Below, piece by piece: positions 1,171 through 49,062 of a stretch of 57,669 nt of DNA. The stretch's first letter is position 1. Every line of letters starts with the position of its first letter. Made by a program: the position numbers and the translations under genes. Source of the DNA: a virus (taxonomy: Duplodnaviria; Caudoviricetes); the IMG/VR virus record IMGVR_UViG_3300033149_004313, positions 1 to 57,669 of that record. One strand, written 5' to 3'. A model generated the notes under the pieces. The model ran no database searches and was not told the origin of the DNA. It worked only from the letters and a program-made list of their open reading frames with translations.

Positions 1171-3396
1171 ATGAAAGAAAAATGGAGAGCAAGATTAATC
1201 GCCTCTGGCGTCAGTTTATTAGCTCCTGTACTTCTCATGTTAGTTATCTTTCTTGTGATGGTCCTTACTGGTGATTATGTATTCGCAAAAGATCGTTACA
1301 AGATAGATAAAGACATCAAACTGAAAGCCCGTGCAGCATCAGTACAGATATTACATTTAATACCAGGCCTCAAAGCTAGCTTTGCAGATCCCCTTTCTGA
1401 AACTACCAGGATAGATACAAAACAACAGATTTTGGATATCCTGGAAGAGCAGGAAGTTACCAAGGAGGCTATCGAAGACCTCTTGAATAAAAGAAACCTC
1501 ACGGAAGAAAAACTAAATAAACTTATTACATCTATGATTGACGAGGCTATTAAAGCCGAACGGACTAGAGATGAACAGGATAAATATGAATCTAGCCTCA
1601 CCAGCATAGAAAGATACGGCTATGAAAGCCCTTCAAAAACAGCCATACCCCTGGGAGCACTGGCACCAAGGTGGGCCCGGTTTCCTGAACGGGTGCTGGT
1701 AGTTCAGAAGACCGAAAGGGATGAAATTACTGCATGGGAAAAAGAATATGAAGAGGATGTTCTGGCAGTATCCGAAACGGCGGACGTGAGCCCCAGCAAG
1801 GCAAAAGCAATAATCACAACACTCAGGAGCAAAGGTTACAGCATATTCAAGGAAGAAATAGCGGAGGAGGCTACTGTTGAACTTCTATGGTTCCGCTCTG
1901 GATGGGATGAAAAATATCCCACTACATTAAACTGGAAAGTGTGCATCGAAGGTACGGAGACTAACATTATCACCGGATATGATCCCAGAGGGATTTTACA
2001 TGTGCGCCCTATCCCTGACGGTAAGCGGGTGTATGTGTCCGCTGGATATTTTGATCTCAAAGACGAGTTCAGACCTAAATCCTCGGAAACTAAGCGGCTG
2101 GAATATGAATTAGAGGGACTTGAAAGAAAAATCAAGCTGATGCAGGAACAGCAGGCTGAAAGAGATGAGGCTAATGAGAAAAGAATAAAAGAATTAAACG
2201 AGCAATTAGCCAAAACCGAGGAAGAGCTTCGCAAGGAAAAAAAGGAGGAATACAAGCGTGATATTTCCAAGGCTACCTGGCTTGATGTAAAAATGGGCGT
2301 TGTGAAACTTGAAGAATTCTGGATGATCGGAGGCGGTACAGGAACTTATCTTGGAAATATGAAGGTTGATAATGAAATGTACGGCTTTCAATCCAGTTGG
2401 GGCGGCTATAGACATTTCACTGGAAGTGAAGAAAAAGGCGTTATATTAACGAATGCACACGTTGCTACTCATGCCATAGATTACAATGTATACGTTTCGG
2501 AAGACAAAGAGGTTATGTGGATTATCTACCCAGGCTACCAGTATGTAAGATATACGCAAGACAGTGATCTTTTCGGATCGCCTAGTCAGGTTCTCTGCAT
2601 AGATTATAAGCCGGTATTAAGTCGGTCGATGGATTGCGCCATTATTGTGACAACCAAGGTGCCGCATTACAAAAAACATGCTGCACTTTTGGGTAACAGC
2701 GATAATGTGGATCAAGGCGACAGGGTAATTATGGTAGGCAATCCGGGTTTATTGCAGAAGTTTGCCACCGAAGGCATTATCTCGAACAAAAATTACGATT
2801 CGATGAAAGACGCCACGTGGTTTTATCTTCCGCCAATACCCAGAACAGTCCTTGACTTGCTGCGAAACGCAAACCTATGGATTGATGCACCTATTGGCAT
2901 TGGGGGCACAAGCGGTTCTGCAATCTGGGCACTGGATGGTAAAGAACAGGGCAAAGTTATCGCCCTTCATGCTCTGGGATTAGGCAGTCCTATTTCATTT
3001 ACCAAACCAGTGAGTAAAATTGATGTTGATTCCATTGATTTTTCGATAATCGGAGATGAGGAAGGAAAGATTGTTTGTGATCCAAAGGATTGTGATTGCG
3101 AAGATTATATTGGGAAAAAACAAATCAGATTGACTGCTGAAAAATTGAGAGAAGAACTATTCAAGGATTATTCGTTTGAAAAAGCTATGAAAGGAAACAG
3201 GCAATCCCCTGATGTTTTCTATAAAGAAAATGAGACGTTTAAACCATTGATGAGTGCACACGGGAAATTCATCTGGATTACTGGTATGAGTGCTGGTATT
3301 CCGATCAATAAAGTTAAAACATATCTCCAGGAGCGGGGGCTTGATCCTGATAATTTTAAATGGGAGGGTATAGACAAGAAATACTGGTGGCAATAA
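1171..3396 (+). CDS. Membrane-anchored trypsin-like (S1/HtrA-like) serine protease with large insertions
   Basis: N-terminal TM/signal; GGGTG, ILTNAHV (His), SMDCAI (Asp), LGNSD..VIMVGNP, GGTSGS (Ser), SAGIP; RBS GGGAGGAG. Confidence 0.85.
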   Translation: MKEKWRARLIASGVSLLAPVLLMLVIFLVMVLTGDYVFAKDRYKIDKDIKLKARAASVQILHLIPGLKASFADPLSETTRIDTKQQILDILEEQEVTKEAIEDLLNKRNLTEEKLNKLITSMIDEAIKAERTRDEQDKYESSLTSIERYGYESPSKTAIPLGALAPRWARFPERVLVVQKTERDEITAWEKEYEEDVLAVSETADVSPSKAKAIITTLRSKGYSIFKEEIAEEATVELLWFRSGWDEKYPTTLNWKVCIEGTETNIITGYDPRGILHVRPIPDGKRVYVSAGYFDLKDEFRPKSSETKRLEYELEGLERKIKLMQEQQAERDEANEKRIKELNEQLAKTEEELRKEKKEEYKRDISKATWLDVKMGVVKLEEFWMIGGGTGTYLGNMKVDNEMYGFQSSWGGYRHFTGSEEKGVILTNAHVATHAIDYNVYVSEDKEVMWIIYPGYQYVRYTQDSDLFGSPSQVLCIDYKPVLSRSMDCAIIVTTKVPHYKKHAALLGNSDNVDQGDRVIMVGNPGLLQKFATEGIISNKNYDSMKDATWFYLPPIPRTVLDLLRNANLWIDAPIGIGGTSGSAIWALDGKEQGKVIALHALGLGSPISFTKPVSKIDVDSIDFSIIGDEEGKIVCDPKDCDCEDYIGKKQIRLTAEKLREELFKDYSFEKAMKGNRQSPDVFYKENETFKPLMSAHGKFIWITGMSAGIPINKVKTYLQERGLDPDNFKWEGIDKKYWWQ

Positions 3397-14802: not shown

Positions 14803-14894
14803 AACCAGAGCTTAGCCAGAGCCAGCTTTAGCAAATTTGGCTTAAAATTGAATAAAGGGCTAATCCGAATCTGATCCGTTCGGAAATGACAACT

Positions 14895-14933
14895 AGGGAT
14901 AATGCGGGACCCGCACTTGCATTATCCCTTTTT
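14895..14933 (+). terminator. Hairpin plus U-tract (terminator/attenuator) before the scaffold gene
   Basis: AGGGATAATGC...GCATTATCCCT followed by a T run. Confidence 0.55.
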
Positions 14934-14964
14934 GTTGCCCATAAAACAGAAAGGAGAAATCAAA

Positions 14965-16011
14965 ATGCCAGATGACGAAAAAGCCACAGAGCAAGAACCA
15001 AAAGAGACAGAAGAAAAAGCTCCTGATGAAGAGGGAGAACTGGCCTTTGCCGAGGATATGAGCGAAGAGGAAGAGCCCTCTGAAAAGGGTAAGGAGAAAG
15101 CCGAATCCAAGTCCAAAGAGGATGAGGAAGAAAAGAAGAAACCTGAAAAAAAGGCCAAAAAGGAACCTAGGGAAGAAAGTGAAGAACAAAAGGCAGAGGA
15201 GAAAAAGAAGGAAAAGGAACTGACAGTCGAAGAAAAGATCAAGGAGCGCATCAAGAATTTAGAAGATGAAGAGGAGGAAATAGAGGAAAAATCACCTGAA
15301 GAGAAACCAGAGAAAAAGAAACCGGAGGAGGAGAAAGAAAAGAAACCTGAAGAGAAAGCGGAAGAGGGATCGAAACCGGCAAAGCTAAACAAAGAGCTCC
15401 TTGCAGAACGTTTAAGCCTGATCTCAAAAGATGATCTTCCAGGGGAAGTAATCATAGGCGATGAAACGGTAAATCTAAAACAATATGCTGAGGATTACCC
15501 CGATGACTTTGCGGCAATTCGAGTGTTATCGAGCTTGGTTGCCGAAAAAATGATTAACAAAACAGTGGAAGGAATTGAAATACCTGATACTGGAAAAGTT
15601 ACCGAAAGAGTAGACAACCTGGAAGCGGGATTGGCTCAGTTATCTTTTGATAACGGTGTTATGCGAGCCAAAGATGATGAAGGCAATTTAAAACATTCCG
15701 ATTATTATGATATTGTGTATGGTTCAGGTATGAAAGATTTCCACGCATGGATAAAAGAACAGTCGCCCAAGGTGCAAAAACTGGCAAGTTCTTTGAACCC
15801 GGAAGATGGCATTTTAGTTCTGGATTACTACAAAGAGAATATAGCCAGGAGAAAAACAACCGAGCATGACAAAAAGACCAAGGATAAGAAAAGGGAATAC
15901 GATGACATTTATAAGTCCGAAAAGACTATGAGGAAGAATCAACCGGAATCCAGTATCGGGGGAAAATCACCAGACAAAGAAGCGGAAGAGGCTTTTGAAG
16001 AAGAAGATTAA
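14965..16011 (+). CDS. Scaffolding protein
   Basis: Very E/K-rich low-complexity N-half, upstream of the capsid gene; RBS AAAGGAG before ATG 14965. Confidence 0.7.
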   Translation: MPDDEKATEQEPKETEEKAPDEEGELAFAEDMSEEEEPSEKGKEKAESKSKEDEEEKKKPEKKAKKEPREESEEQKAEEKKKEKELTVEEKIKERIKNLEDEEEEIEEKSPEEKPEKKKPEEEKEKKPEEKAEEGSKPAKLNKELLAERLSLISKDDLPGEVIIGDETVNLKQYAEDYPDDFAAIRVLSSLVAEKMINKTVEGIEIPDTGKVTERVDNLEAGLAQLSFDNGVMRAKDDEGNLKHSDYYDIVYGSGMKDFHAWIKEQSPKVQKLASSLNPEDGILVLDYYKENIARRKTTEHDKKTKDKKREYDDIYKSEKTMRKNQPESSIGGKSPDKEAEEAFEEED

Positions 16012-16395
16012 ATGAGCAAAAATTCACCCAGCCAAAAAGGAAGAAAAAGTCGTGGCAAAATATCTTCTGGACATTTAGTCACTTTAGGAAAAGGTGTTGA
16101 TGATCAATTCTTCAAAGCGTTCAAAGGAACCCCTAATCACGGATTGAATAGAAAATTAGACCAAACTGGAAAAAATAAACTGTGGGGAAGCTCACTGTTT
16201 AAGTTACATGAATTTTCTTATAAACCTGTAGAAGAAAGGAGAAAATTAATTTTAGATTGCCAAAAAAATGGCGAATTTCGCTGTTTTTGGTGTGGCAGGG
16301 TCTTTTTTCGCGGTGTTCTGGGTCCTAACACCAACATACAGATCAAATGTCACAATTCTAAGTGTAGGCACATGAATGTAATTTCAAGCGTTTAA
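16012..16395 (+). CDS. Protein with C-terminal Mu Com-like zinc ribbon
   Basis: FRCFWCGRVFF...IQIKCHNSKCRHMN matches the Com-family pattern. Confidence 0.6.
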   Translation: MSKNSPSQKGRKSRGKISSGHLVTLGKGVDDQFFKAFKGTPNHGLNRKLDQTGKNKLWGSSLFKLHEFSYKPVEERRKLILDCQKNGEFRCFWCGRVFFRGVLGPNTNIQIKCHNSKCRHMNVISSV

Positions 16396-16464
16396 CCTAG
16401 AACCTGCCTTTGCTGGAAGTCCCAGAGACTCTTTTTGAAAGGCGCAACAGAAAGGAGTTTTGTT

Positions 16465-17493
16465 ATGGGATTACCTGCAAACACTACCACATATGAGGAC
16501 ATTTCCCCGAGAACCAGGGGAAAGGCTGTAAGGAAGCTGCTAGAACGCGGTCAGCATATTATGACCACGGAGCGTTTTGGCACTATTGATCCGCAGCCGA
16601 AACATTCAACCTTAACCCGCAAGTGGAGAAGGTATCATTCCCTTGCGAGAGCTACCGCACCATTGGCTGACGGTGTTCCGCCTACCGGCCAGAAACTCAC
16701 GCATACCGACATTACGGCAACCCTGGAATTTTACGGCGATGTCGTAAAAATCACCAATACCATTCATGATACACACGAGGACCCTGTGTTGAATGAAGCC
16801 ATGAAGATATGCGGTGAGCAAGCTGCGGAAACGGTAGAGGAATTGAGGATTAATTTCCTCCGAGCCGGAAGTAATGTATTTTATGCAAATGGTGTAAGTG
16901 CCAGAAGTTCAGTCAACAGTCCGGCGGTACGTGGCGATTTCCGCAAAATCTACAGATATTTCAAAAAATACAAAGCACGTGAGATAAGCGAAATCATTAA
17001 GGCTTCAGCTCTAATTTCAACCGAGCCGGTGGAATCTGCCTATTTCTGCATGGGCCATACCGACCTGGATGCAGATATAAGGGGAATTTCTGGTTTTCTG
17101 CCCAGTGCTCAGTATTCAGATTCTACTAAGCGGTTGCCTGGTGAAATTGGCAAGCTGGAGCAGTTCAGGGTTATTTTAACGGCTATGTTCGAGCCGTGGG
17201 AAACCTCGGGTGCTTCGGGAACCACCTATCTTTCCGGCGGAAGCGCACCTTCAAGTGCCGCTCAATGCGATGTCTATCCCTTAATTTTTGTCGCCAGGGA
17301 TTCTTATGCCATCGTTCCGCTTCAGGGATATAACTCCGTGGATATCGGCGTGGTAAATCCTGGCAAGAAAACCAAGGACGATCCGCTTGGCCAGATCGGG
17401 TTTGTTTCCTGGGGAACCTATCAGACTGGGGCAATTTTGAACCAGAACTGGGTGGCACGCCTGGAGGTAGCTGCCAGTGCAAATCCATCATAA
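16465..17493 (+). CDS. Major capsid protein, N4-gp56 family
   Basis: TTYEDISPRT, WRRY..L, L.DGVPP.G, GEIGKLEQFR, DVYP, DDPLGQ.G.V.W, ILNQNW.ARLE; RBS AAAGGAG. Confidence 0.92.
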   Translation: MGLPANTTTYEDISPRTRGKAVRKLLERGQHIMTTERFGTIDPQPKHSTLTRKWRRYHSLARATAPLADGVPPTGQKLTHTDITATLEFYGDVVKITNTIHDTHEDPVLNEAMKICGEQAAETVEELRINFLRAGSNVFYANGVSARSSVNSPAVRGDFRKIYRYFKKYKAREISEIIKASALISTEPVESAYFCMGHTDLDADIRGISGFLPSAQYSDSTKRLPGEIGKLEQFRVILTAMFEPWETSGASGTTYLSGGSAPSSAAQCDVYPLIFVARDSYAIVPLQGYNSVDIGVVNPGKKTKDDPLGQIGFVSWGTYQTGAILNQNWVARLEVAASANPS

Positions 17494-42960: not shown

Positions 42961-45147
42961 TCATTTTAATAGCTGATTGGTAGTTGACGGAAGCATCTCT
43001 TTTACTTTGTTTGTGATATGATCTAAACTACCTTCCAGCCTTGTGTTTAGTGGAGAGCCGCACCATAAACCTCTAATTATTTGCAAGTCGTTTTTATTTC
43101 CATGCCCATGATACCACACATCATAAGTGAAATACCAAGGAATATCTGGTGGCATTATTTTTTGTAATTCGCTTATGAAATCATTAATTTTCATCATATC
43201 CCTCCAGTTAGAAGATACATATCTCCCATCAAAGAGCCTAATGAGAGAAACATAGTTACTAGGCTCTGCTCACGGTAGAGCAGATAAAGGGTTGCTATAG
43301 TGCTAAGTAAGGAGAGCATTCAATTAGTAAATCCATTCAAGTGTTTCCGGATTAATGTCACATGAATTGCAAAATTCTGTATATGACATTTTCCCGTCCA
43401 AAACTGTGATTATATTCTTAAGTTGTGATCGCAAAGTTCTGCCATCACAATCGCTCCAATCCCCTCGCCAAGCAGAACCAAGAGCGATTAAACAATCTTT
43501 CGCAATTTCAATTCTCATATCTTTATCACTCAAAACATCCTCCTTTCCCTAAAGATAAGTTTTAGAACTTGAGAGAGCATTTTTTCAACCTGCAAAGGCT
43601 GTTAATGCCTCTAGGGTCTGGTTTAAAGTTAAAATCACTGAATCCAATGAATCTAAAATTCTTGATCCTGCTTCAGGGGGTATTGATTTTTTAATTGTTA
43701 CAGGATATTTTATTGGAGAATGAAGTGTAAGACTTTTATCCCTTATTAGATTTGACATAGATTGAATTTGCTCTATCTTCGCTTCAATAATTTCTAAATC
43801 ACATACTTCTGCATCCTTTTCCATAACATCTCCTTTCCCTTGGGGCAGGTGGAGGGTAAACCTGCCCCTTTGCTTATAGTAGGGCTAGGGTAGCCCGTAG
43901 AAAGAGTATGCGAATATTAACTATAGCTTGTAAGTTTGTTTTTTGAACCTCCCTTTTTAGTTCACGTTTATACCCTTGCCGCTTGTCCCTCTTTCGTCCT
44001 CGTAAGGCTGCGGTCGGGACTGGACCGTATGTTTAATCTCTAATTTTCACCATTGCCTGAGCTCTCGCCCTGAGCACGGGAGGGAAAAGAGATTAATTGC
44101 TGTGTATAATATCTGATTTGCCTTTCTGCTTGTTTGATATTTTGGCGAACATTATGCTTTTGAATATCTATCAGTCCTGGGAGCCATTGGTCAAACTTGA
44201 TACTGTCATCAAGATACCATTCCCAATATTTCAATCTCGCTTTTATTCTGGTCAATCTGTCCTTGCTACAACACCCACATCCAACACAAATTTCACCAAA
44301 ACTCCATAGGGTGGCATAACAACTCTTTTTAGCGGGAATATCAATATAGCTATTCATACTTTTTCCTGCGGCATATTTCTCTCTTCGCACCTTATATCCC
44401 TCATTAGGTCCATGATTTTTCTTTCCACAAGTTGCATGACATTAAAAATTCTGCCAACTTTATCGGTTCCTGGTGTCTCTAAGCTTTCTTCTACTATAAG
44501 ATTTACTATTTTATCTATTCCGTTCATCAGGCATATTAGTTTCCGTGCACTTCCTCGCCCTCTCATAGACCTCATCAATGAGGAGGTCCATTGCTTCGTC
44601 TAGCTCTTGAGCGTCCATAGGGGCAAAGAGTGCCCGGAGAGTATTGATTTGGTTTTCATTTAAGTGGGCCATAATTTATCACATTGACTGTAGCAGATAA
44701 ATTACGATAAGTCCTATAAGAACCCAAGGGATAAGGAGTTTCACAATTTCTGAATTAGTCATAGGTTGACCTCCGTCGCTTGATTAAAGGTCTTCCGATA
44801 CTGCCAACGCCGGTTAAAATACTTGGCGTTTATAGTACAGATTTTCTCGATTTGCTCAACAGGTAGGAAGGTGGCATCCAAGATTGCTACCTTTTTTGAG
44901 TTGTGGAGGTAGGGATAACCTCCATCCTTGCTTTCGTAGAAGTCGATATAAAATCGCTCTTCCATCATTGATCATCCTCTATAGGCCTCTCAAGGCGATC
45001 CTCGTACTTAAGCCATTCGCCACACTGAGGACAATGAGTAATAGGCTTATTTTGATTGATATCTAAAAAGGTAGGAATATATGCCAAGCCATTCCATTTA
45101 AATTCAACCAGAACCTTGGCTCCGCATTTACAAAAGTGTACGTACAT
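42961..45147 (-). other. Cluster of small hypothetical CDS (42961-43197, 43324-43533, 43585-43824, 44040-44357, 44354-44539, 44759-44968, 44965-45147 zinc ribbon)
   Basis: Co-oriented ORFs with GGAGG/AGGAG RBS and intergenic hairpins. Confidence 0.6.
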
Positions 45148-45191
45148 TAAATGGCCTCCATTCTTGAGAGGTTTTCTTTTATGGTGTTTAG

Positions 45192-45220
45192 ATGATAGTA
45201 CAAATTGTCCTACTATGCAA
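45192..45220 (-). promoter_or_regulatory. Leftward promoter with an operator in its spacer
   Basis: TTGCAT-17 bp-TATCAT on the minus strand; GTACAAATTGTCC at 45198-45210. Confidence 0.7.
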
Positions 45221-45360
45221 GTACGGAAATGAGCGACAATAGATGATAAGAGGTAATTTATTGCTTGTTATTGGCTTATTTCTTTTAATTTCTTAAAATA
45301 TTAAAGATTATCTAATGATTTCTCATTATGGCGATAACAATTGATCATCAAAATATTTTC

Positions 45361-45395
45361 TTGACAAATCCTTCAGAAAGTGGTACAAATTGTCC
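45361..45395 (+). promoter_or_regulatory. Rightward promoter with an operator over its -10
   Basis: TTGACA-17 bp-TACAAA with extended TG; second GTACAAATTGTCC at 45383-45395. Confidence 0.7.
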
Positions 45396-45396
45396 C

Positions 45397-45654
45397 ATGG
45401 ATAATTATGACCTTTTAGAGAAACATTTCGGCAATCACACCAAGGTAGCCCAAAGGCTGAGGATTACTCCTCGGCATTACCGCAGGATCCGAAATGGGCA
45501 ACTCAAACCATCCAAAACATTGAATGCCTTGATTCAATTTATTGTTAAGGATATAAAGGCCAAGAATCCTAACCGATTTTATTCTAATAACCCCACACCT
45601 AATAGAAAAGGAATAAAGAGGCTATTTAATCTCTTTAAAGGAGGGAGAAAATGA
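45397..45654 (+). CDS. Cro-like HTH transcriptional regulator
   Basis: HFGNHTKVAQRLRITPRHYRRIRNG HTH; first gene after the divergent promoters. Confidence 0.7.
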   Translation: MDNYDLLEKHFGNHTKVAQRLRITPRHYRRIRNGQLKPSKTLNALIQFIVKDIKAKNPNRFYSNNPTPNRKGIKRLFNLFKGGRK

Positions 45655-45893
45655 GCGAATGGAAAAGAATTTATAATTTCAAAGACCACATGCTAGACAT
45701 CTCTGTTGGCATGTGGCCTATGGACAGTCGTGTTTATTTCACTGTCGGGGGGCTAGAACCCGAAGATCTAATAGACCAAAATATTGAGTTTGGTCTATCA
45801 ATAGAAGGGCTTGAGCGCATACTGAGAGAGGCCAAGAAAGTGGCTTATAAGAGGCCTTACAAATGGGAGGCGAGACCTACTAGTACCTTATAG
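45651..45893 (+). CDS. Hypothetical protein
   Basis: RBS AGGAGG; ATGA overlap. Confidence 0.6.
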   Translation: MSEWKRIYNFKDHMLDISVGMWPMDSRVYFTVGGLEPEDLIDQNIEFGLSIEGLERILREAKKVAYKRPYKWEARPTSTL

Positions 45894-45928
45894 AGGGAAT
45901 ACAAGGGAGACTTTTCATATATTATACT

Positions 45929-46265
45929 GTTAGCCATTAAGAAAGGAGACATTATGAACAAAGGCAAGTTAATATTCCAAACCAAACCAGACAGAGGCTT
46001 TATTTTTAAAGCCTGGGAGTTACCCGATTCAAATGGTGATGCTCTGGTTGAAGTAGAACGAGACAAAAAGGTCATACGAAGTTTTAGCTTCCCAGCCTAT
46101 AAGGTCTGGAATATCCCTGCACATTCTGATGATATTATTCAAAGCGAATTAAACAAAGATGCTGAAGGATATATAATTGCTGGTTCAGATGGGCTTGGCG
46201 GGAATGTTTTTGGCTAACCAGCCATTTGAGCCGCCGTTTTCGGTCAGCTCAGCTAAATGTTATGT
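45929..46265 (+). mobile_element. Integron-like gene cassette carrying ORF 45954-46217, closed by an attC-like site (46212-46265)
   Basis: Begins GTTAGCC; the ORF stop lies in the complementary GGCTAAC; followed by TGAGC..hairpin..GCTCA and GTTATGT. Confidence 0.7.
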
Positions 46266-46373
46266 GTGCATCGAGGGCATATTGATGTGTACCATCCGGA
46301 GGAGCGCATCTTAATAATTGATAACAATTAGATATGAGCGACCTGGACACACATAACTACCACAAAGGAGTAT

Positions 46374-46574
46374 ATGATGGAATTTAAAATCCAGTTTTTT
46401 GGTCGTGTATTTTCTATATCTATTGGTCATAAAACTTATTGGTTTGAACAATTACCACTAATTTTGATTGTTGAAGAATTTTATAATGAACGCCGAGAAG
46501 TAGATTATGCCAACTATATATGGAGTACGGCTGACTGGCCGTTCCACTTAACTGCTAAAAGGCATAGCAAGTGA
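46374..46574 (+). CDS. Hypothetical protein whose C-terminus reads into an attC-like site
   Basis: RBS AAGGAG; ends ADWPFHLTAKRHSK. Confidence 0.55.
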   Translation: MMEFKIQFFGRVFSISIGHKTYWFEQLPLILIVEEFYNERREVDYANYIWSTADWPFHLTAKRHSK

Positions 46575-46588
46575 TCTAATCGTTATGT
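46529..46588 (+). mobile_element. Second attC-like site (60 bp, degenerate R'')
   Basis: GGCTGAC-5 nt-GTTCCACT...TGCT..AGCA..AGTGATC-5 nt-GTTATGT. Confidence 0.65.
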
Positions 46589-46693
46589 GGAATAATGCTG
46601 GCCCCGAATATGGATAAGCGTAAGCGAAGAGATAGTTGTATATGACTATCACCAGCTTATTCCACACAGTTTATGTAAGCGTTACACAACACT

Positions 46694-48637
46694 TTGAAAG
46701 GAGAAATTATGAGCGGTGGAAGTTATGACTATCTTTACATTAAAATGGAAGATGCTGCCGAAACATTAAGTAATGACAAAAACCCTTTGCGGAAAGCATT
46801 CGCTAGAAAGTTACAACTTTTTGCAAAAGCTATGCATGATATTGAGTGGGTTGATTCTTATGATTATGGTCCTGGTGATGATGAAAAAGCAATTAGGCAG
46901 GCACTTGGAAAGAATGCTGATAAGCTAGCGCTGCAGGAAGTTGTATTAGCGGCTGAGGCAATTAAAAAAGATTTATCTAAATATAATAAAGCTAACAAAT
47001 TAATCTATAGCATTATTTGGAGAAATATAATGAAATATCCTTTCTGGAAAACAAACGTCTACTGGCGATTTAAAGGTGAGAAGACCTACCGTTATGGATA
47101 TCCAACACAAATGAATAATGGACTTGTTCGTATGGGTAGGTGGCATGGTGATATAGCAGGTGGAATAATTGTTGATATAAGGGATATCGAAGTCAAATGA
47201 GAAAAATAGCAATGTGGTTAATCAATAATATTCCGCTTGGCAAACTTGCTCCACATATATTTGGCTATGCTATCGGAGCAACGAGCTGGGCGAAAGTAAG
47301 TAAATATGAAAATAAAAAAAGTAGCAGAAGATATAGTTAATGATTTGAACAGCCTTGAAAATAGAACGAAGGCTATTCAAAAGCTGGCAACCCCGTATAA
47401 AGAAAAGCAAATTGAAATCGTGTCTAATCACTTGCATCTTTTAGTAAGCAAAGCGGCTCAACAAAACAAAAACTTTAACTAAGGAGAAAAAAATGAAAGG
47501 CACAAGAGAGACAAGCTATGCTTACGTTGGAGATAATAAAGCGACAGATAAGAATACATCGCCAAGGTTTAAAGTAGGCGATAAAGCTCTTGTTCCTTAT
47601 AAAGGAAAAATAATCTCACAAACTGTCAACAATGTTTTTTGGGATGAGGAGTTCGGTGGCTGGCTCGTATGCTGCTATTTAATTGGCATACATGAGCAAA
47701 ATTTTATACATGAATCTGAAAGAGATGATTGGATACCTCACGAGGATGGATTGTGGTCATGGTGGGAGAAAAAAGAATAAGAATTTTTACCGAAAGGACT
47801 TAAAATGAAAAACACGCCAATAACCGTACAAATGTCAGTCGATGTGAAGGCAGCGTATAAGTGGGTTAGAAATCAGCAACATGAGACTAGGGCGTTGAGA
47901 TATGCTAAAATATTAGCTGACTACATTGATCAAACGAAAGTTTGTGTCGATTACTGGAATGTAACACAACTTGCGGATAAAATGCCGTTCCTCAGCTATT
48001 ATAAGGAGGAAAATAAACCATGACAGTGTCTGATCCGGATTATTAACCAATGACCACTTCCCGAACCTACGTATGCATATGCCGCAATTGTGGGGACGCT
48101 TTCCAAGCCAAAAGCGCCATGACCGGATGGTGTCCTAAGCCCGAATGCCAAGAGGCTAGAAGGGTTCACAAGCTACAATATGACAATAACTACCACAAGG
48201 CCAACTATCGGAGATACTACAAGCAAAACCAAAAAGTACGTAGTTCGCCTAAGCTAAAGTCCAAGCAAAAGAAAAAACGCCGATGTCTGAAATGTAGAAC
48301 CTTCTTTAAACCTAAAAATGATGAACATTTCTGCGAGATATGTGATCGGCTGAGAAGAAACTACACTGAAGATGACTGGTATGGGCAAGAGTTGGGGATC
48401 ATTTAAATGCCCAATCATATCATGGCACCTATAATTGAAGCATGGAAGGAGATGAAAAAAGAAATGGAAAAAGAAAGGCGAATTAAGAAACTTGAAGATG
48501 CTTTGAAAGCTATTTGGATATGGGCTGAATACGATTTAGAGGAAGGAAAGTGTTTGGCGTTGAATCCTAAAGATGTGATCAAGCTCTGTGAGAGGATGTT
48601 GACAAATAAGAAAGAGATGAAGGATAAGCCCGAATGA
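46694..48637 (+). other. Cluster of small hypothetical CDS (46709-47200, 47493-47780, 47805-48023, 48050-48406 Cys-rich, 48407-48637, plus short ORFs at about 47197-47480)
   Basis: Co-oriented ORFs with RBS; 46709 starts MSGGSYDYLY. Confidence 0.6.
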
Positions 48638-49062
48638 AACTCATAATCCTGGGCAAACCGATTGCTAAGGCTAGACCGAAATTTTATCGCAGAGGTAATT
48701 TCGTAGGTGCATACAATCCGCAGGAAACTGAAGAAGGCCGATGGCTCTTAGACGCAACGCAGCAGCTAAAAGCAAATGGCTTTGTTAGGATTGATGAGGG
48801 GCCTGTCATGCTCAATCTAGTCTTTATCATGCCTATTACAAAGACATGGCCCAAGTATAAAATCGAACAAATTAGAAATAGAGAAAAGCTCTTTTGGCAT
48901 ACTAAAAAACGTGACGATTTGGATAATTGTATCAAATTCGTTTTGGATTGTTTAAATGGTATTGCCTACCGAGATGATAGTCAGGTGGTAGCCATAAATG
49001 CTATGAAATATTACGGACTAGAAGCAAGGACAGAGATAGAGATAAAGGAGATAAACGTATAA
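48634..49062 (+). CDS. rusA: RusA-family Holliday junction resolvase
   Basis: GKPIAKARP, KKRDDLDNCIKFVLDCLNGIAYRDDSQVV. Confidence 0.9.
   Translation: MKLIILGKPIAKARPKFYRRGNFVGAYNPQETEEGRWLLDATQQLKANGFVRIDEGPVMLNLVFIMPITKTWPKYKIEQIRNREKLFWHTKKRDDLDNCIKFVLDCLNGIAYRDDSQVVAINAMKYYGLEARTEIEIKEINV

Follow-up and report, generated by a model that had tools for sequence, protein, structure and literature searches.

A probable lone integron-type cassette with a weak attC-like site among the early genes of a tailed phage

How a small phage gene came to lie between sequences that resemble the two ends of an integron cassette, in a genome with no integrase of its own, is the question raised by ORF87. 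The gene lies in the window, by which we mean the whole 57,669-bp stretch of DNA that was analysed. As a virus record the window is complete: it has direct terminal repeats, CheckV puts its completeness at 100, and a head-tail connector, a beta-helix tail protein, RusA and a DHH phosphoesterase are among its proteins. An earlier note had described the locus as an array of integron cassettes, here called units 1 and 2, inside a phage early operon. The strings that it quoted for the two units are all present where it had placed them, and none of them is rare singly. That the phage lacks an integrase is confirmed: the integrase and recombinase families TIGR02249, PF00589 and PF00239 gave no match in the complete 57,669-bp record.

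Genes of the phage run leftward up to ~45150 and rightward from 45328, where the first rightward gene encodes a weak Cro-like HTH protein. By its look the rightward block appears to be an early operon, and unit 1 is placed near its start because the rightward run of genes begins at 45328. The rightward genes are closely packed and leave only three gaps, at 45894-45953, 46218-46373 and 46575-46708. Scans for promoters (10 against 9.8) and terminators (3 against 2.3) were at chance level and placed neither in the first two of these gaps, and a tRNA scan found none. An Rfam scan of 44000-49000 at E<=10 returned 3 weak unrelated matches, none of them within the features described here; Rfam is not known to hold an attC family, hence this null result says little. 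Pfam and PHROGs gave nothing for ORF80, ORF87 and ORF66. When 45300-47300 was searched by blastn (distant mode), none of 50,697 phage records matched, and scans of viral contigs with ORF80, ORF66 and the DHH protein found no relatives of these. In these searches no close phage relative spanning the site was found, and gain or loss exactly at G/TT (the slash marks the junction) was not seen. Elsewhere in the genome, 37989-38723 encodes a DUF481-type (outer-membrane beta-barrel-like) protein (E 6e-16), and 1171-3396 a 741-aa protein with a trypsin-like peptidase domain.

Layout, model scores and fold of unit 1

The features of the locus are collected in Table 1. The 5' boundary of unit 1 ends 17 nt ahead of the ATG of ORF87, and GTTAGCC has a single occurrence per strand in the window. 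Inverted repeats of this size are common: perfect 8-mer inverted pairs at 150-1500 nt spacing number 1804 in the window and 1739 +/- 56 in 30 shuffles, and those prefixed with GTT number 18 and 17.2 +/- 3.1, respectively. The 8-mer inverted repeat formed by GTTAGCCA and TGGCTAAC alone is not above chance. ORF87 is, at the same time, the only one of the 251 ORFs of at least 50 aa with a 7-mer ending in AAC at its stop and the complement of this 7-mer at most 60 nt upstream of its start. In 20 shuffles that arrangement was found in 10 of about 2,800 ORFs, or ~0.35% per ORF. The combined features of unit 1 do exceed chance, because this unique complement of the ORF end coincides with the top hit of two models of attC sites.

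Table 1. Features of unit 1 and of the adjoining region, in window coordinates
Feature	Position	Strand	Description
Unit 1	45929-46265	+	ORF87 and site 1; 5' boundary GTTAGCCA
5' boundary of unit 1, G/TTAGCCA (GTTAGCCA)	45929..45936	+	exact complement of R'' at the ORF87 stop
ORF87, 87 aa	45954..46217	+	GGAG ribosome-binding site 45945-45948
Site 1, weak attC-like	46211..46265	+	R'' TGGCTAAC (46211-46218) contains the ORF87 stop codon TAA (46215-46217)
L arms of site 1	46227-46236 and 46241-46251	+	flank a TTTT loop
R' of site 1, GTTATGT	46259-46265	+	3' end of site 1
IG1 stem-loop, 99 nt	46259..46357		perfect 10-nt arms GTTATGTGTG and CACACATAAC; RNA fold z -3.7
ORF66	46374..46574	+	ORFan, putative coding
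Site 2, attC-shaped by eye	46529..46588	+	R'' GGCTGAC 46529-46535; R' GTTATGT 46582-46588
IG2 stem-loop, 81 nt	46586..46666		perfect 10-nt arms 46586-46595 and 46657-46666; RNA fold z -5.6

Both models are home-made covariance models. Searching with IntI1 of plasmid R100 led to 80 loci with IntI1 or with integrases 73-77% identical to it. From the DNA upstream of intI in these loci we took sites that start with RYYYAAC, end with GTTRRRY and fold end to end, which gave 31 non-redundant seed sites; 14 of them, 57-72 nt long and from loci L011-L055, were aligned (alignment A2). In A2 RNAalifold found the R''/R' and L''/L' pairing again, and 6 of the 13 pairs showed compensatory changes. Run on 27 held-out loci (329 kb), model R1, built from this 14-site alignment, matched 68 times at E<=1, some sites being matched on both strands, and real sites in these loci scored about 20-67 bits. 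Model R2 is a broader model built from 58 matched sites. On R100 the aadA1 attC, whose annotation is independent of the model, reached 73.2 bits with R2, and no unrelated hit in the 50 kb exceeded 12.9 bits.

Over the whole window site 1 was the top hit of R1 (46213-46265, + strand) at 18.4 bits (E 0.023; next hit 8.3 bits), and also of R2 at 14.5 bits (E 0.16; next hit 9.5 bits). The hit begins at the stop codon of ORF87. In the cmsearch alignment model positions 1-68 are covered and 5 of the 6 L pairs are present, with the AAC of R'' and the GTT of R' at the spacing of the model around the L''/L' stem. We determined the background of R2 with filters off over ~327 kb, comprising the window, 80 metagenome loci, L002 and R100. 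Barring the aadA1 control, which has a weaker opposite-strand match at 14.1 bits, the hits of at least 13.8 bits were either site 1 or attC clusters beside relatives of ORF87. The other background hits had 12.9 (R100), 11.9, 11.9 and 11.2 bits, metagenome loci reaching 11.2. It follows from this spread that the model evidence for site 1 is real but marginal, and that site 2 belongs to the background.

The fold of site 1 depends on the form in which it is considered. As integrated, TGGCT pairs with the adjacent AGCCA in the lowest-energy fold, and not R'' with R', giving two separate small hairpins. For the excised circle we folded the bottom strand of site 1 joined to the first bases of the cassette itself, that is, with its own R'. 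In this form site 1 makes the full R/L hairpin, with 8 of 8 end pairs, a dG of -15.7 kcal/mol and a z of -5.5. Two attC sites at L110, a locus with an ORF87 relative, also fold end to end in their own-R' form, with 7 and 8 end pairs.

In attC sites it is the extrahelical bases on the L'' side, the 3' arm of the bottom strand, that set the choice of strand. Site 1 has none there: it bulges once, on the non-canonical 5' arm of the bottom strand, and the bulges of L110 and of a second such locus, L123, lie on the 3' arm. As the bulged base is on the wrong arm, site 1 may be eroded or non-functional. The bottom-strand folding that the earlier note had asked about is borne out in the end pairing of site 1 with its own R' and not in the position of its bulge, nor at site 2, where the ends are unpaired. 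The hairpin behind ORF87 has no T-run. Site 1 was also read on the minus strand, in the manner of the inverted arrays described below; this gave 4.8 bits only and no partner left of 45929, and we rejected it.

Relatives of ORF87 and their attC sites

At E<=0.001 the protein collection contains 74 members of the ORF87 family, that of the window included. The AlphaFold model of ORF87 (pLDDT 82, pTM 0.72) has a four-stranded sheet followed by helices, and a fold search of PDB and BFVD with this model gave no match at E<=0.001. Its best hits, non-significant, were RGC domains of IQGAP and the anti-CRISPR AcrF1 (E 0.09-0.4, TM 0.33-0.47). The faint likeness to AcrF1 itself (E 0.2-0.8, TM 0.37-0.47) is likewise non-significant and serves as a lead only.

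Similarity to the 20 close relatives at the DNA level is limited to 45936-46224, that is, to the ORF and its ribosome-binding site. In 18 of the 20 closest relatives, those other than L110 and the window, no attC-like hairpin was seen by eye and R2 gave no hit; the next gene mostly starts within about 10-60 nt. One relative, L122, ends in the same GGCTAAC as Gly-stop coding sequence only.

Scanning metagenomes with ORF87 yielded 80 loci, and viral contigs 3. R2 found attC sites of at least 13.8 bits at four of the 80 metagenome loci (L110, L123, L156 and L177), and attC sites also lie beside the relative at two of the three viral loci (L004 and, more distantly, L003). Running R1 on the viral loci had been meant as a null test; it gave five strong sites at L004 and one at L003. 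The family is therefore cassette-borne in 6 of the 83 sampled loci, and the layout is identical to that of unit 1 once, at L110.

L110, a contig of 1,007 bp, resembles the window in its G+C content (41%). Three attC hits, of 24.0, 13.8 and 26.5 bits (R2), lie on its + strand, and a 70%-identical relative of ORF87 lies between the last two of these, the 24.0-bit hit being upstream. An R' box, GTTATGC, ends 21 nt ahead of the ATG of this relative, and its TAA lies within the R'' box GCATAAC; the two boxes are exact complements (7/7). The neighbouring cassette has GTTAACC and GGTTAAC, which are likewise complementary at 7/7. This neighbour is a 50-aa cysteine-rich ORF, and the sites of L110 are A+T-rich and canonical. 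No attC was found beyond position 600 of the 1,007, and L110 may be another phage-borne mini-array. At L123, a 22.1-bit attC ends 20 nt ahead of the ORF87 relative. In the tree of the family the three canonically attC-linked members (the window, L110 and L123) are scattered among members with no attC; the tree is poorly resolved, with too few columns to tell gains of attC from losses.

Stronger arrays with a different geometry, on contigs of phage type, are found beside other relatives. At L004/L092 (contig G001, 9584-11422) five attC sites of 26.5-58.5 bits flank the ORF87 relative on both sides, on a contig with a terminase and phage-type replication and recombination genes. At L003/L096 (G002, 14839-17346) there is an integron integrase (313 bits, cut-off 265), co-directional with the genes and with three attC hits upstream of it. 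At L177, five attC sites of 17.5-48.6 bits lie in 21-1492. The attC sites stand at gene ends on the strand opposite to the gene, in 5 of 5 cases in G001, at the 5 sites of L177 and in 3 of 3 cases in G002; at L156 a single attC lies directly ahead of the start of the relative, also on the opposite strand. The orientation of gene to attC in G001, L177, G002 and L156 is the reverse of that in classical cassettes. The ORF87 relatives of these four loci fall into one well-supported clade of 15 rows, to which 11 attC-less members also belong. The HK97-capsid family gave no match in G001-G003.

These arrays would be consistent with integron cassettes being made and traded in phage early regions and not merely received there, a reading that we consider doubtful. 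The ORF87 family occurs as a plain phage gene with no attC (at most loci), as a canonical cassette (at L110 and L123 and probably in the window), and within strong arrays. On this reading, cassettes would conceivably arise when attC sites, facing either way, come to lie between phage genes, by which the intervening genes would become new mobilisable cassettes; this step is as speculative as the rest. Were cassettes indeed made in phage early regions, this would touch on where cassettes come from, which is an unsolved question.

Site 2 and the intergenic hairpins

The second unit of the proposed array would consist of ORF66 and site 2. Searched against 5.8 billion proteins, ORF66 found itself only. 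R2 scored site 2 (46530-46588) at 7.7 bits, which corresponds to an E of 8.3 in a search of the whole window and of 0.17 in one of 1.2 kb, and R1 reported nothing there. Site 2 has GAC where AAC is expected. Its R'' box is not complementary to the 5' end of the unit, and in folding it forms no end pairs (z -1.5 to -1.8). Of the two attC-like sites proposed, then, site 1 stands, marginally, as the top hit of both home-made models, and site 2, with its 7.7 bits and its GAC, falls.

Each of the two intergenic regions behind ORF87 and ORF66 holds a stem-loop. The first GTT of IG1 is the R' of site 1, and the 3' half of site 2 runs into IG2. Neither IG1 nor IG2 has a match in Rfam. The window has 4 copies of the string GTTATGTG, where ~1 would be expected; three of the four stand within 330 bp in this region. 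IG1 and IG2 each begin with, or follow, GTTATGTG. In the early transcript both may act as RNA structures for its processing or regulation. We also considered CACACATAAC (46348-46357) as the R'' box of a tiny cassette with no ORF; neither L boxes nor a model hit follow it, and the idea is unsupported.

That IG2 has a history separate from ORF66 came from run X2, a hydrothermal-vent metagenome of which contigs only, of low depth, were used. The Cro-like gene, ORF80, IG2 and 47030-47300 are all matched by contigs of a phage with ~90-95% similarity. In one of these contigs, with a depth of ~4, 116 unrelated letters stand where the window runs up to 46571, and the match then extends over 46572-46680, which contains IG2, with 4 other letters and 2 gaps. 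The boundary of similarity falls inside L', 10 nt before the GTT of site 2, and not at G/TT. To the left of this boundary the sequence differs; to its right lies a phage element that is conserved, IG2, to which the last 17 nt of site 2 belong. As the similarity starts at 46572, the 3' part of site 2 moves together with IG2 rather than with ORF66. The earlier note had expected relatives to gain or lose DNA precisely at the GTT sites, and for site 2 this X2 boundary speaks against it. The X2 contigs leave 45922-46571 uncovered, those of run X1 are gapped, and runs X3 and X4 gave no contigs on the window. Taken together, site 2 is probably a look-alike, either due to chance or long dead, whose 3' half is part of the native hairpin IG2.

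Downstream of IG2, position 46680 is followed in the X2 contig by 20 other letters and then by 47030, so that 349 nt of the window are absent from it. At 47030 there is an ATG with a ribosome-binding site, inside the region of a 163-aa ORF (46709-47200). This ORF has a two-module look, and its five viral relatives align only to residues 1 to ~90-100.

Origin of unit 1 and likeness to known systems

We argue that 45930-46259 is a lone integron-type cassette, made up of ORF87 and a weak attC, that a host integrase inserted at a GTT in the early-right block of the phage; we give this reading a probability of about 0.6. The cassette origin of unit 1, taken by itself, is likely, although the scatter of the attC-linked members in the family tree and the reversed orientation of the strong arrays count against it. 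In the excised circle TTAGCCA would join the G at 46259 and pair with TGGCTAAC to form the R box of the attC hairpin. A host integron integrase would have put the cassette into phage DNA at a plain GTT, by recombination with a secondary site of the attC x attG type. The target GTT would be the foot of the native hairpin IG1, that is, its first bases. ORF87 would thereafter be read together with the phage early genes, from an early promoter that we assume. The junctions of unit 1 are phage/TTAGCCA on the left and attC-G/TTATGTG on the right, and no attC-like hit lies left of 45929; we take this to be the mark left by one insertion through attC x secondary-site recombination. Alternatively, the phage could have acquired unit 1 by recombining with a second phage in which the cassette was already present.

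It could also be that all of this is chance: ORF87 would be an ordinary mosaic gene, exchanged at gene boundaries as early-region accessory genes are, the stem-loop behind it would act on the transcript, and the GTT and AAC triplets would be coincidental in an A+T-rich genome. Much of the evidence fits such a history. The similarity to the 20 relatives at the DNA level is confined to 45936-46224, most relatives of ORF87 have no attC, and the 8-mer inverted repeat occurs at chance frequency. Site 1 scores only ~1.6 bits over the best background hit, folds as two separate hairpins when integrated, and has its bulge on the wrong arm. We nevertheless consider chance an unlikely explanation, as it needs three coincidences at one ORF, namely the top model hit (E about 0.02-0.16), a terminal complement found in 0.35% of shuffled ORFs, and a family that is cassette-borne at 6 of 83 loci. 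The G+C-rich stem-loop would, if all is chance, serve processing, stability or weak termination, a role that we likewise hold improbable; against termination, the hairpin has no T-run and the terminator scan is empty there.

A larger structure is harder still to defend. Unit 1 and ORF66 could be what is left of an array of two or more cassettes captured by a host integrase, a CALIN whose attC sites erode, with site 2 as the dead attC of ORF66. Site 2 does align with the model from end to end, with 5-nt spacers and an additional C in L'', and ranks second among the hits within 1.2 kb (E 0.17). It is found at the end of the next ORF, on the strand of site 1, and the 14-nt ends of the two sites agree at 12 of 14 positions. 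A single A-to-G change would account for its GAC. Its 7.7 bits are, however, within the background range and R1 is silent; its R'' has no complement at the 5' end of the unit and shows no end pairing; ORF66 has no relative at all; and the similarity of the X2 relative (one contig, depth ~4) starts at 46572, inside L'. We regard such an array as very improbable, and unit 1 is best read as one weak or eroded cassette. What remains of the claim of an integron cassette array is that unit 1 looks like an integrated IntI-type cassette; there is no array, and site 2 fails as its second member. The term CALIN suits the locus in that the replicon has no integrase and does not suit it in number, as at least 2 attC sites within a few kb are usual and site 1 is the only one at E<=1 in the window.

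Phages with attC clusters have been described, and the earlier note's suggestion of an undescribed system does not hold: the part of the paper by Qi, Rajabal, Ghaly, Tetu and Gillings (2023, Front Microbiol, PMC9892861) that we draw on reports such clusters and proposes the same phage route of cassette transfer. According to this part, integron components were found in 21 of 10,705 phage genomes, with 17 CALINs among those 21, some of them in virulent phages, and IntI1 recombined 5 of 6 tested phage attC sites. Like the window, these phages, virulent ones among them, have attC-type sites behind genes and no integron integrase, and GTTRRRY motifs are noted at their boundaries. The window differs from them, as they are described there, in having one credible and weaker site, with a score below 20 bits under a home-made model. 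As the attC calls there require at least 2 sites and at least 20 bits under the model used by those authors, the window would not be called by them.

The insertion that we propose resembles attC x attG recombination. The portion of the preprint cited here (bioRxiv 10.1101/2022.09.11.507474) reports that IntI1 inserts cassettes at GWT sites in genomes, from which they can be re-excised. As in unit 1, the product described is a lone cassette with a non-att junction on the left and an attC junction on the right, at a GTT, and neither attI nor a neighbouring attC is needed. It was shown there in the laboratory on bacterial chromosomes, whereas the target of unit 1 would be phage DNA, and the event is deduced from the sequence alone.

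The classical aadA1 cassette of Tn21/R100 shares with unit 1 a stop codon in or next to R'', the order R''-L''-L'-R', AAC and GTT triplets ~9 nt from the 6-bp L core, and a 5' end that complements its own R''. Its attC scores 73 bits, against 14.5 for site 1 (R2); site 1 is shorter (53-55 nt), A+T-richer and without the two bulged bases on the usual arm. Compared with the aadA1 integron, the window has no intI, attI or Pc promoter. Morons are small accessory genes of phages with their own promoter and terminator. Unit 1 is like a moron in being a small gene between conserved early genes, with similarity that stops at the gene edges and a stem-loop behind it. It is unlike one in that our scans found no promoter or terminator for it, and morons are not known to have complementarity between start and end.

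The finding reveals no new kind of system. Compared with the phage-route idea as already published in the part of PMC9892861 used here, the window adds at most a lone weak cassette and family-level evidence. If site 1 is a real attC, the window would be a further non-integrating marine-sediment phage with a cassette among its early genes, and, unusually for such a case, the ORF87 family provides evidence of one gene passing between ordinary phage surroundings and arrays of cassettes. It would then also support phages as carriers of cassettes between hosts, as put forward in the cited part of Qi et al. 2023. ORF87 is in any case a concrete small protein to test for a role in infection.

We would also mention a contig from run X1 (record 4; 2,445 nt, depth ~27), which matches ORF87 at ~90% over 46067-46174. 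It diverges at 46174 and goes on with an attC-like start (..TAAC and a GCTGGAC-type L box), and may be a second ORF87-type cassette in the same marine sediment sample.
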